Assembly: GCA_016839745.1 (NCBI GenBank) | Contig: JAEOTS010000123.1 | Coordinates: 1-33,744 of the forward strand | DNA: 33,744 bases | Direction of reading: 5' to 3' | From: Promethearchaeota archaeon | Lineage (GTDB): Archaea; Asgardarchaeota; Lokiarchaeia; Sigyniarchaeales; SOKP01 | Shown here: positions 8,887-33,213 of the stretch, one piece after another | Layout: each line of letters begins with the position of its first letter | Position numbering within the stretch: position 1 is the first letter of the stretch | Notes under the pieces: model-generated | The model's input: the letters and a program-made list of their open reading frames with translations, nothing else | What the model was told of the DNA's origin: nothing | Databases searched by the model: none | Translations under genes and position numbers: made by a program

Positions 8887-8973
8887 AGATGTCTGATTTC
8901 TCAAAACCGTAAAATTATTTTTGTAGGATTAATTATTGAAATTAGTAGAAATATTAAAGATAGGTAGAATAAC

Positions 8974-9387
8974 ATGGATATCAACAATTATGACGAATTA
9001 ATAGATAAAGCTTATGAGAAGATTCCCGATAATGTGAAGAAATTATCTAGGTTTGTAATTCCAAAAGTTGACATAAGAATTGAAGCTAAAAACACATACA
9101 TTACAAACTTTAACAAAATTATTAATACTTTAAATCGAGATCGCAAGCATTTTATTGGTGTATTTCTGAAGAAAGTAGGAACTATGGGAGAAATAAGAGG
9201 ACAACAATTATTTCTAAAAGGTATCTATAAAGAACAGGTATTGAATAGATTAATTGAACAATATTCAAAAATGTATGTATTATGTAAGATATGTAATAAA
9301 CCTGATACAGATATTCAAAGAGAAGGGAAAAAAAATTATCTTAAATGTACTGCTTGTGGTGCACGGGAAGAAATAAGAGAAAAATAA
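8974..9387 (+). CDS. eif2b: Translation initiation factor 2 subunit beta
   Basis: RFVIP, TYITNF, LNRD, YVLCKICNKPDT and LKCTACGA motifs. Confidence 0.96.
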   Translation: MDINNYDELIDKAYEKIPDNVKKLSRFVIPKVDIRIEAKNTYITNFNKIINTLNRDRKHFIGVFLKKVGTMGEIRGQQLFLKGIYKEQVLNRLIEQYSKMYVLCKICNKPDTDIQREGKKNYLKCTACGAREEIREK

Positions 9388-22508: not shown

Positions 22509-23312
22509 ATTTCTGGTTATATAGGTAAAAGAATTAGATTAGAGAGGATTTTCAACCGGGAAACAAAAAGAACAATCATAATTCCCATGGATCATGGGTT
22601 AACTGAGGGACCCATTAAAGGAATCGACAGAAATTTAGGAGATATGGTTAACAAAATAGCTTTAGGAGGGGCAAATGCAGTTTTAGGCCATATAGGGATT
22701 CCACTTTATGCCCACAGAGGATATGGTCCAGACATTGGCTTGATTTTGCATTTATCCGGTTCAACTTCGCTAAGTCCGGAATCAAATTACAAGGTATTAG
22801 TCAACGACGTATTAGAAGCTGTAAAGTTAGGTGCTGATGGCGTCTCTTTACACATTAACATTGGAACAAAAACAGATCCAGAAATGTTGGAGATTTTAGG
22901 AAAGGTTTCACGAGAATGCCGAGAATTCGGGATGCCCCTTTTAGCTATGATGTACCCTAGAGGCGAAAATGTCGAAGACGAACACGACGCTCAGGTTGTT
23001 AAAATTGCAGCAAGAGTTGCTGCGGAGCTCGGTGCAGATATCGTAAAAACCAATTGGACAGGAGATCCCGATTCTTTCAAGGAAGTCGTTGACGGATGTA
23101 TGACCCCAGTAATTATCGCGGGAGGCGTGAAGGCAGGTATTAAAGAGCTTTTAGAAATAACAAAACAATCAATAGATGTTGGTGGTGCAGGAGTCGCGTA
23201 CGGTAGAAATGTTTTTCAATCGGAAAACCCAAGGAAGGTCGTGAAAGCGCTTCATTTAATCGTTCACGAGAATTATGGAGTAAATGAAGCCATAAAAGAA
23301 TTGAGATTATAG
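22509..23312 (+). CDS. DhnA-family class I aldolase (ADH synthase AroA' or fructose-bisphosphate aldolase)
   Basis: PMDHG, GADGVS.H, AMMYPRG, ELGADIVKT and GRNVFQ motifs. The conserved GKRIRLERIF N-terminus lies upstream of the track's ATG. Inferred ATT start at 22509. Confidence 0.9.
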   Translation: MSGYIGKRIRLERIFNRETKRTIIIPMDHGLTEGPIKGIDRNLGDMVNKIALGGANAVLGHIGIPLYAHRGYGPDIGLILHLSGSTSLSPESNYKVLVNDVLEAVKLGADGVSLHINIGTKTDPEMLEILGKVSRECREFGMPLLAMMYPRGENVEDEHDAQVVKIAARVAAELGADIVKTNWTGDPDSFKEVVDGCMTPVIIAGGVKAGIKELLEITKQSIDVGGAGVAYGRNVFQSENPRKVVKALHLIVHENYGVNEAIKELRL

Positions 23313-32673: not shown

Positions 32674-33015
32674 CTATCGTTTATTGGTGTATCTCATCCG
32701 TTCCTGAATTAGAATATTTTCTTCAGGAAATCCTAAGTCAATTAGAAATTTCTTTAGTTTGAATTTGTGATCACCTTGAAGTTCGATCTCGTTTCCTCTA
32801 ACTGTTCCTCCAGAAGCACATTTCCTTTTAGCTTGCGTAAGAATATCTTTTAAATTCGCATCTATGTTCCCCTCGAACTTGATAACTGTAACCACACGCC
32901 CCCATTTACGTCGATCGTTAGAAATAATAATTTGTTGTTCATCTGCGCTTAAACTATCGCATATACATAGGTCTTTCGGAAAACTACATATAGCACAAAT
33001 ATCGTCGTCTTTAAT
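32674..33015 (-). CDS. sui1: Translation initiation factor aIF1 (SUI1), inferred ATT start
   Basis: The frame extends 40 codons upstream of the track's GTG: (I)KDDDICAICSFPKDLCICD...RRKWGRVVTVI...CASGGTV...IELQGDH. Both the CxxC..CxC knuckle and the SUI1 motifs are present. Confidence 0.92.
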   Translation of the reverse strand: MKDDDICAICSFPKDLCICDSLSADEQQIIISNDRRKWGRVVTVIKFEGNIDANLKDILTQAKRKCASGGTVRGNEIELQGDHKFKLKKFLIDLGFPEENILIQERMRYTNKR

Positions 33016-33213
33016 ACTCTTTTTTCACAACCTTTATTATTGAAACGTTTAAAAATACAATACTAAAAAATAATAGACCTAAATCTTATAAAAACCTTTT
33101 TTAATTTTAGTTTTAAATAATTTTAAAAATATGAAGTTTTATAAAAAGTGTAGTTTGGTTTAGCATTATTATAAAAACAAAATCTTATTTACTATAATTA
33201 AAAAAAAACATTC

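Follow-up and report, generated by a model that had tools for sequence, protein, structure and literature searches.

To our knowledge, an AUU start codon is almost unique to infC in E. coli. The bacterial infC gene, which encodes IF3, combines this AUU start with translational autorepression (Butler, Springer and Grunberg-Manago 1987, cited in PMC4705826), and the gene for eukaryotic eIF1 (SUI1) has its AUG in a poor context that leads to negative autoregulation (Ivanov et al. 2010, cited in PMC6237735 and PMC4705826). In archaea, start-codon discrimination on the 30S subunit is known for aIF1 of Sulfolobus (PMC4705826) and of P. abyssi (PMC6237735); the Sulfolobus 30S:aIF1A:aIF2:Met-tRNAi complex binds AUG and AUU mRNAs alike when aIF1 is absent, and AUG mRNAs only when it is present (Hasenohrl et al. 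2009, cited in PMC4705826). Monestier et al. 2018 (PMC6237735) bring in the autoregulation of eIF1 as an analogy only. The original prediction for the locus described below knew of no description in archaea of such a feedback through a near-cognate codon, and our search of the literature openly available as full text gave no description of a near-cognate start on an archaeal aIF1 gene.

Asgard archaea are the closest known relatives of eukaryotes, and the DNA analysed here (the window) is a stretch of 33,744 nucleotides from the genome of one of them, a Promethearchaeota archaeon, with an aIF1 gene on the minus strand close to its end. The minus strand reads AAAGGTTGTGAAAAAAGAGT ATT AAA GAC GAC GAT ATT TGT GCT ATA TGT, and in the aIF1 frame this is TGA (33027-33025), AAA AAG AGT, ATT (33015-33013), AAA GAC GAC GAT (Table 1). 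The original prediction proposed initiation at this ATT on the grounds that the frame is closed by the TGA and has no ATG, GTG or TTG before the GTG at 32895, that a start at that GTG would delete the zinc knuckle and the RRKWGR loop, that the ATT gives a normal-looking aIF1 N terminus, and that a Shine-Dalgarno-like sequence ends about 9 nt upstream. Each of these observations stood up: re-reading of the sequence and the ORF listing agree on the closed frame, the loss of both elements from the shorter form is borne out by translation and by alignment with the structurally known aIF1 of Methanocaldococcus jannaschii (4MO0; the same protein is used in 5JB3 and 5JBH), the ATT product aligns from residue 3 of that protein, and GGTTGTGA is found at 33032-33025 with a gap of 9 nt.

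Translation from the ATT gives 113 aa (IKDDDICAICSFPKDLCIC...RRKWGR) with the features of an aIF1, namely a SUI1 domain, a zinc knuckle, a basic loop and a length in the range of ~100-115 aa. In profile searches this product scores 56.8 bits with PF01253 (SUI1; cut-off 25.5, E 3e-15) and 108.1 bits with NCBIfam PRK00939, which is above the cut-off of 98, and it aligns with residues 3-101 of 4MO0 with an E value of 9e-22; since the alignment begins at residue 3, the ATT product has an ordinary aIF1 N terminus. The 73-aa form from GTG 32895 loses both the zinc knuckle and the basic loop, and an exact look-up of this form in the protein collection gave no match. Initiation of aIF1 at the AUU at 33015, with a full-length and normal product, is very probable; the expected N-terminal peptide would be (M/I)KDDDICAICSFPK, presumably with Met as the first residue. 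A genome search finds aIF1 as a single copy in the window's genome (3.5 Mb, 89% complete). The gene stands by itself, with a divergent Ras-family GTPase gene on one side and a 145-aa ORF, uncharacterised, on the other. The Ras-family small GTPase gene (PF00071; 33214-33744, plus strand), of a kind typical of Asgard genomes, runs past the end of the window, and the intergenic region 33036-33213 is common to both genes. In congeners (G036:C19, G005:C22 and G008:C3) aIF1 lies ~9-10 kb from the 16S rRNA gene on the same contig, and the window's contig stops short of this position.

Table 1. Features of the aIF1 locus and of other ATT/ATA-started genes; positions without a contig prefix are those of the window, and the prefixes C20, C93 and C189 denote other contigs of the same genome.
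Feature	Position	Strand	Basis or remark
aIF1/SUI1 coding sequence read from AUU	32674..33015	minus	113 codons and TAG stop; PF01253, PRK00939, 4MO0 alignment
ATT, proposed AUU start codon	33013..33015	minus	28 of 28 congeners; only ATT or ATC in 76 loci
Purine-rich spacer, constant 9 nt, variable sequence	33016..33024	minus	28 distinct spacers in 76 loci
In-frame TGA closing the aIF1 frame upstream	33025..33027	minus	76 of 76 loci
Shine-Dalgarno-like GGTTGTGA in invariant block AAAGGTTGTGA	33025..33032	minus	pairing with 16S tail; identical in 74 of 76 loci
Short ORF GTG AAA AAA GAG TAT TAA (MKKEY*)	33011..33028	minus	GTG inside Shine-Dalgarno site, TAA overlaps ATT
TCTATTATTTTTTAG, candidate BRE/TATA promoter element	33063..33077	minus	~50-60 nt upstream of ATT; conserved block in 24-sequence alignment
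N-terminal zinc knuckle CAIC...CIC (Cys7 to Cys19)	32959..32997	minus	aligns with CPRC...CVC of M. jannaschii aIF1
Basic loop RRKWGR (residues 35-40)	32896..32913	minus	aligns with KRRFGK of 4MO0
First in-frame canonical start, GTG	32893..32895	minus	yields 73-aa fragment only (ORF listing)
DeoC/LacD-family aldolase gene (PF01791)	22509-23312	plus	appears ATT-started, 7 nt after GGTGA; first canonical codon 26 codons in
Gtr1/RagA-like GTPase	C20:11598-12530	minus	ATT start; first canonical codon 33 codons in, beyond P-loop
Metallophos_2 protein (metallophosphoesterase)	C93:60589-61098	plus	ATT start; first canonical codon 101 codons in
C5 DNA methylase	C189:208-1314	minus	ATA start; first canonical codon 94 codons in

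A scan of public genomes gave 78 aIF1 loci of this family, whose titles are mostly 'Promethearchaeota archaeon' and which come from many studies and assemblers, with one closed chromosome among them. Together with the window itself, 76 loci are readable at the 5' end; they span ~60-100% protein identity and, coming from related genomes, are samples with shared ancestry. Orthologues with a uniform ATG at the proposed start had been named in the original prediction as evidence against it, and the alignment gives the opposite picture, with ATT in 73 loci, ATC in three, and ATG, GTG or TTG in none of the 76. All 28 congeneric species have the block AAAGGTTGTGA, nine variable bases, and then ATT AAA GA, and the column statistics for these congeners give an invariant block of 12 nt, a variable spacer, an invariant ATT, and clean third-position variation from there on. 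Across the whole family the spacer never departs from 9 nt although its sequence takes 28 different forms, and a further in-frame TAA or TAG is found in 36 of the 76 loci, in some of them just one codon before the ATT. As judged from this alignment, the layout of GGTTGTGA, 9 nt and ATT is far beyond chance. In two loci (L276, DXJM01000019.1, and L148) the aIF1 ATT is preceded, at a distance of 3 nt, by an ATG-TAG 'start-stop' pair in the same frame (GGTCGTGAATGTAGCCT ATT).

The 16S rRNA is unassembled in the window's genome; six congeners supplied the anti-Shine-Dalgarno sequence, with GGAUCACCUCCU as the 3' tail of their 16S rRNA. The duplex between GG-UU-GUGA and this tail has a predicted energy of -7.9 kcal/mol, and the bases of GGTTGTGA that pair with the rRNA are the invariant ones, with the two variant loci altering only a base that is unpaired. 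Among well-delimited ATG genes of the same genome, ~10% reach -8 and 23% reach -6, and a spacing of 8-9 nt falls at the long end of their range. By its pairing and conservation, the Shine-Dalgarno site is real, with a spacing and two internal mismatches that are suboptimal and frozen across the family, and the GTG at 33028, which is out of frame, is best taken as belonging to this site. Simple counts of Shine-Dalgarno motifs upstream of ATT or ATA and of control codons gave no clean separation from background, and tests of domain coverage and of orthologues took the place of the motif count for non-canonical starts. Further upstream, TCTATTATTTTTTAG may mark a promoter, which would give a leader of ~30 nt. 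A scan for sigma-70 promoters and intrinsic terminators is uninformative for an archaeon; an Rfam scan of the window gave no match, and in the aIF1 leader neither RNAalifold (0 consensus pairs) nor a single-sequence fold (z = 0.0) gave conserved RNA structure.

The reading of an intact gene has to be set against the possibility that the frame is an artefact or the gene is dead, through a homopolymer error of A6 for A5, through decay to a pseudogene, or through use of GTG 32895 for a working 73-aa protein. Deletion of a single A from the run at 33025-33020 brings the GTG at 33028 into the aIF1 frame, which the original prediction had flagged as a possible assembly error, and the annotated frameshift in aIF1 of Sulfolobus solfataricus P2 did prove to be a sequencing error (reviewed in PMC8211752). 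In other species, however, the position of the A6 run reads AAACAAG, AATAAGG, AAAAAGG, AATAAAG, AAGAAAG or ATAAGAG with length and frame unchanged, and the identical frame recurs in 76 loci from separate assemblies; with the run variable and the frame constant, a homopolymer assembly error is rejected on the comparison of sequences. A dead gene is at odds with the clear purifying selection from the ATT onward and with the absence of another aIF1 in the genome, and a 73-aa protein would be missing the zinc knuckle together with the basic loop, residues of which bind the 30S subunit in P. abyssi (PMC6237735). On this comparative evidence the aIF1 gene is intact and under selection, and the probability of an artefact or a dead gene is close to negligible. 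A different objection is raised by the short out-of-frame ORF that begins within the Shine-Dalgarno site (GTG at 33028-33026, TAA at 33013-33011), which the original prediction did not mention and which was tested here as a rival and found unsupported. Translation might begin at this GTG and reach aIF1 by a programmed +1 frameshift, by slippage of the transcript along the A-run, or by re-initiation on the overlapping AUU after termination at the UAA, and in keeping with this the GTG is invariant in the aIF1 leader, 70 of the 74 scored public loci have the five-codon ORF with its TAA overlapping the ATT, and in sister lineages (L029, L031-L034, L155 and L159) the homologous GTG is in frame. The TAA overlap, though, is an automatic result of ATT being followed by AAA or AAC, and it breaks down in the three ATC species, where the ORF runs to 14 codons, and in two species in which it is cut to two codons or to three (L279). 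The ORF specifies 25 different peptides in the 76 loci, with lengths of 2, 3, 5 or 14 codons, and is thus without selection of its own; nor is the A-run conserved, the extra in-frame stops leave no position common to all species for a shift into the aIF1 frame, and no conserved structure is predicted for the leader. In the other AUU/AUA-started genes of the genome the GTG of GGTGA stands in any frame relative to the start, as expected if the GTG is simply part of the ribosome-binding site. Initiation at GTG 33028 is accordingly improbable, if not to the same degree as an artefact. A mechanism of the prfB type, with a programmed +1 frameshift, was rejected on the 28 spacer variants, the shortened upstream ORF, the extra stops and the absence of conserved structure. 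In two species of a sister-family genus (L030 and L037; G042:C6 and G046:C100), aIF1 has an out-of-frame ATG or TTG, the sequence AAAAAAC, and then an in-frame ATA right after a TGA, an arrangement that may reflect initiation at the ATA or else a genuine +1 shift, or slippage, at the A6 run.

The AUU start of aIF1 has company in the genome. A screen for ORFs closed just upstream, with no early canonical start and a good Shine-Dalgarno match, followed by an assessment of Pfam coverage, gave three unambiguous ATT/ATA-started genes in which the Pfam domain extends from residue 2 (genome G000; loci L058, L060 and L064). These encode the Gtr1/RagA-like GTPase, the Metallophos_2 protein and the C5 DNA methylase, which standard gene callers would shorten by 33, 101 and 94 codons, respectively. 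Among orthologues in the genus, the same codon of the GTPase gene is ATG in 11, ATT in eight, and ATA, ATC, TTG, GTG and ACG in one each, and that of the phosphoesterase gene is ATG in 14, ATT in eight and TTG in eight. Because ATG occupies exactly the same codon in orthologues, ATT serves as a start codon in the genus, and at the level of comparative sequence analysis this is direct proof that it is functional. The DeoC-family gene, which lies within the window, has ATT in 24 of 28 congeners, ATA in three, TTG in one and ATG in none, and at least four genes besides aIF1 start at ATT or ATA in the window's genome. Across the whole genome, 54 ORFs with a length of 150 codons or more remain open for at least 50 codons before the first ATG, GTG or TTG, where ~4 are expected, which suggests non-canonical starts in ~10% of long ORFs, a crude figure that broken genes and assembly errors would inflate. 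A tRNA scan with aragorn found 25 tRNAs, of which one is an elongator-type tRNA-Met(CAU) and none was identified as an initiator. With introns allowed, aragorn also returned one tRNA with the anticodon CTA, labelled Pyl, which could be a false call.

In the proposed mechanism, aIF1 would have a promoter of its own and a short leader, and the 30S subunit would pair with GG-UU-GUGA and initiate 9 nt downstream at the AUU (33015). As aIF1 destabilises AUU initiation complexes, initiation on its own mRNA would fall as free aIF1 increases and rise as aIF1 becomes scarcer, giving a negative feedback on start-codon stringency such as operates with infC/IF3 in bacteria and eIF1 in eukaryotes. Discrimination against non-AUG codons by the aIF1 of this organism would be expected by orthology, and if any of it is retained the factor's own mRNA is among the targets and some feedback is automatic; in an organism that tolerates many AUU/AUA starts, this discrimination may be weak and the loop weakened. 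The conservation of ATT/ATC fits a self-limiting feedback like that of IF3 and eIF1, short of proving it. Whether aIF1 is autoregulated through its AUU start is, in our estimate, evenly poised.

The main competing explanation is that the AUU is real, yet is one of many weak starts that set a low fixed rate of translation without a response to aIF1, so that the likeness to infC is coincidental. It draws on the other genes that begin at ATT or ATA and on the ORF excess, which suggests such starts in roughly 10% of genes, and on the DeoC-family gene, whose retention of ATT in 24 of 28 congeners indicates that an ATT can be kept over the long term with no link to start-codon fidelity. With other AUU/AUA starts in the genome, one of them kept almost as stably, the AUU on aIF1 does not by itself demonstrate a dedicated feedback loop. 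Against a mere weak start, aIF1 has no canonical start in 76 loci at ~60-100% protein identity, while the GTPase and phosphoesterase controls switch repeatedly among ATT, ATG and TTG within the genus, and several unrelated Asgard lineages have ATA or CTG on aIF1 as well. Moreover, any discrimination against AUU of the kind seen in Sulfolobus (PMC4705826) would make feedback automatic. A fixed weak start therefore carries a substantial but minority likelihood, and the best explanation as a whole is an intact, AUU-started aIF1 gene with self-limiting feedback, to which we give a probability somewhat better than even. In a wider version for Loki-type Asgard archaea, the self-limitation of aIF1 through its AUU would make it the set-point for a regulon of AUU/AUA-started genes throughout the genome, which might amount to a tenth of the proteome; this version is more tentative and falls a little short of even.

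The partner factors of aIF1 in the genome, aIF2 alpha and beta, start at ATG, and the start of aIF1A is probably GTG, with ATT as the codon directly before it. The aIF2 beta gene (PF01873; ~8968-9369, plus strand), with its normal ATG start, is within the window. Outside the family, aIF1 is without a canonical start in 13 of ~62 loci sampled from other Asgard lineages, where five families have ATA following AGGAG/AGGAGG and two have CTG, at sites of the AGGAG/GGTG type, and the remaining loci have ATG, GTG or TTG. A second aIF1 copy, 55-62% identical and on another contig, is present in five cases (L031-L034 on G034:C133, G005:C60, G027:C252 and G007:C23, and L162 on G109:C2), where GAGGTGA is followed by 8 nt and ATT or ATA and a GTG is in frame; this copy may represent a paralogue, or else contamination of the bin by a sister genus.

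Should the feedback be real, homeostasis of stringency through a start site that its own product discriminates against would be a universal design, arrived at with unrelated factors (IF3 on the one hand and aIF1/eIF1 on the other) and present in the archaeal lineage nearest to eukaryotes. If the regulon reading is true, the factor for start-codon fidelity would be wired in all three domains to a start site that is deliberately poor, and the loop of eukaryotic eIF1 may go back to a precursor in archaea. Independently of any feedback, gene callers restricted to ATG, GTG and TTG truncate or miss the essential aIF1 gene, and they probably do the same to hundreds more genes in these genomes, which would distort inventories of Asgard proteomes. 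The leader is short and fully defined, consisting of a Shine-Dalgarno site, 9 nt and AUU, which makes the hypothesis directly testable in reconstituted archaeal initiation systems.

Among the known systems, the prfB gene for RF2 is an autoregulated translation-factor gene with a programmed +1 frameshift, an internal Shine-Dalgarno sequence and an in-frame stop, and the aIF1 locus is similar to it in having an upstream Shine-Dalgarno-like element, an in-frame stop, and a main frame that is +1 to an upstream start in the gene of a translation factor. The spacing of the Shine-Dalgarno sequence for frameshift stimulation in prfB is 3 nt, whereas the 9 nt of aIF1 suit initiation, and aIF1 is without a conserved shift site or upstream ORF. 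The likeness to infC is closer, in that the gene of a factor which rejects non-canonical starts itself begins at AUU behind a Shine-Dalgarno site, with the codon kept in relatives as ATT (73) or ATC (three) in the 76 loci. The differences are that IF3 and aIF1 are unrelated proteins, that AUU is almost unique to infC in E. coli while AUU and AUA start other genes in this archaeon, as the ORF excess also indicates, and that the feedback is proven for infC whereas for aIF1 we only infer it. With eIF1 the relationship is one of orthology (PF01253), and each gene has a suboptimal initiation site of a kind that its own factor discriminates against; the weak element is the codon and the positioning of the Shine-Dalgarno site for aIF1, and the Kozak context, with scanning, for eIF1, and a shared ancestry of the two arrangements is without evidence, many Asgard aIF1 genes having ATG, GTG or TTG.
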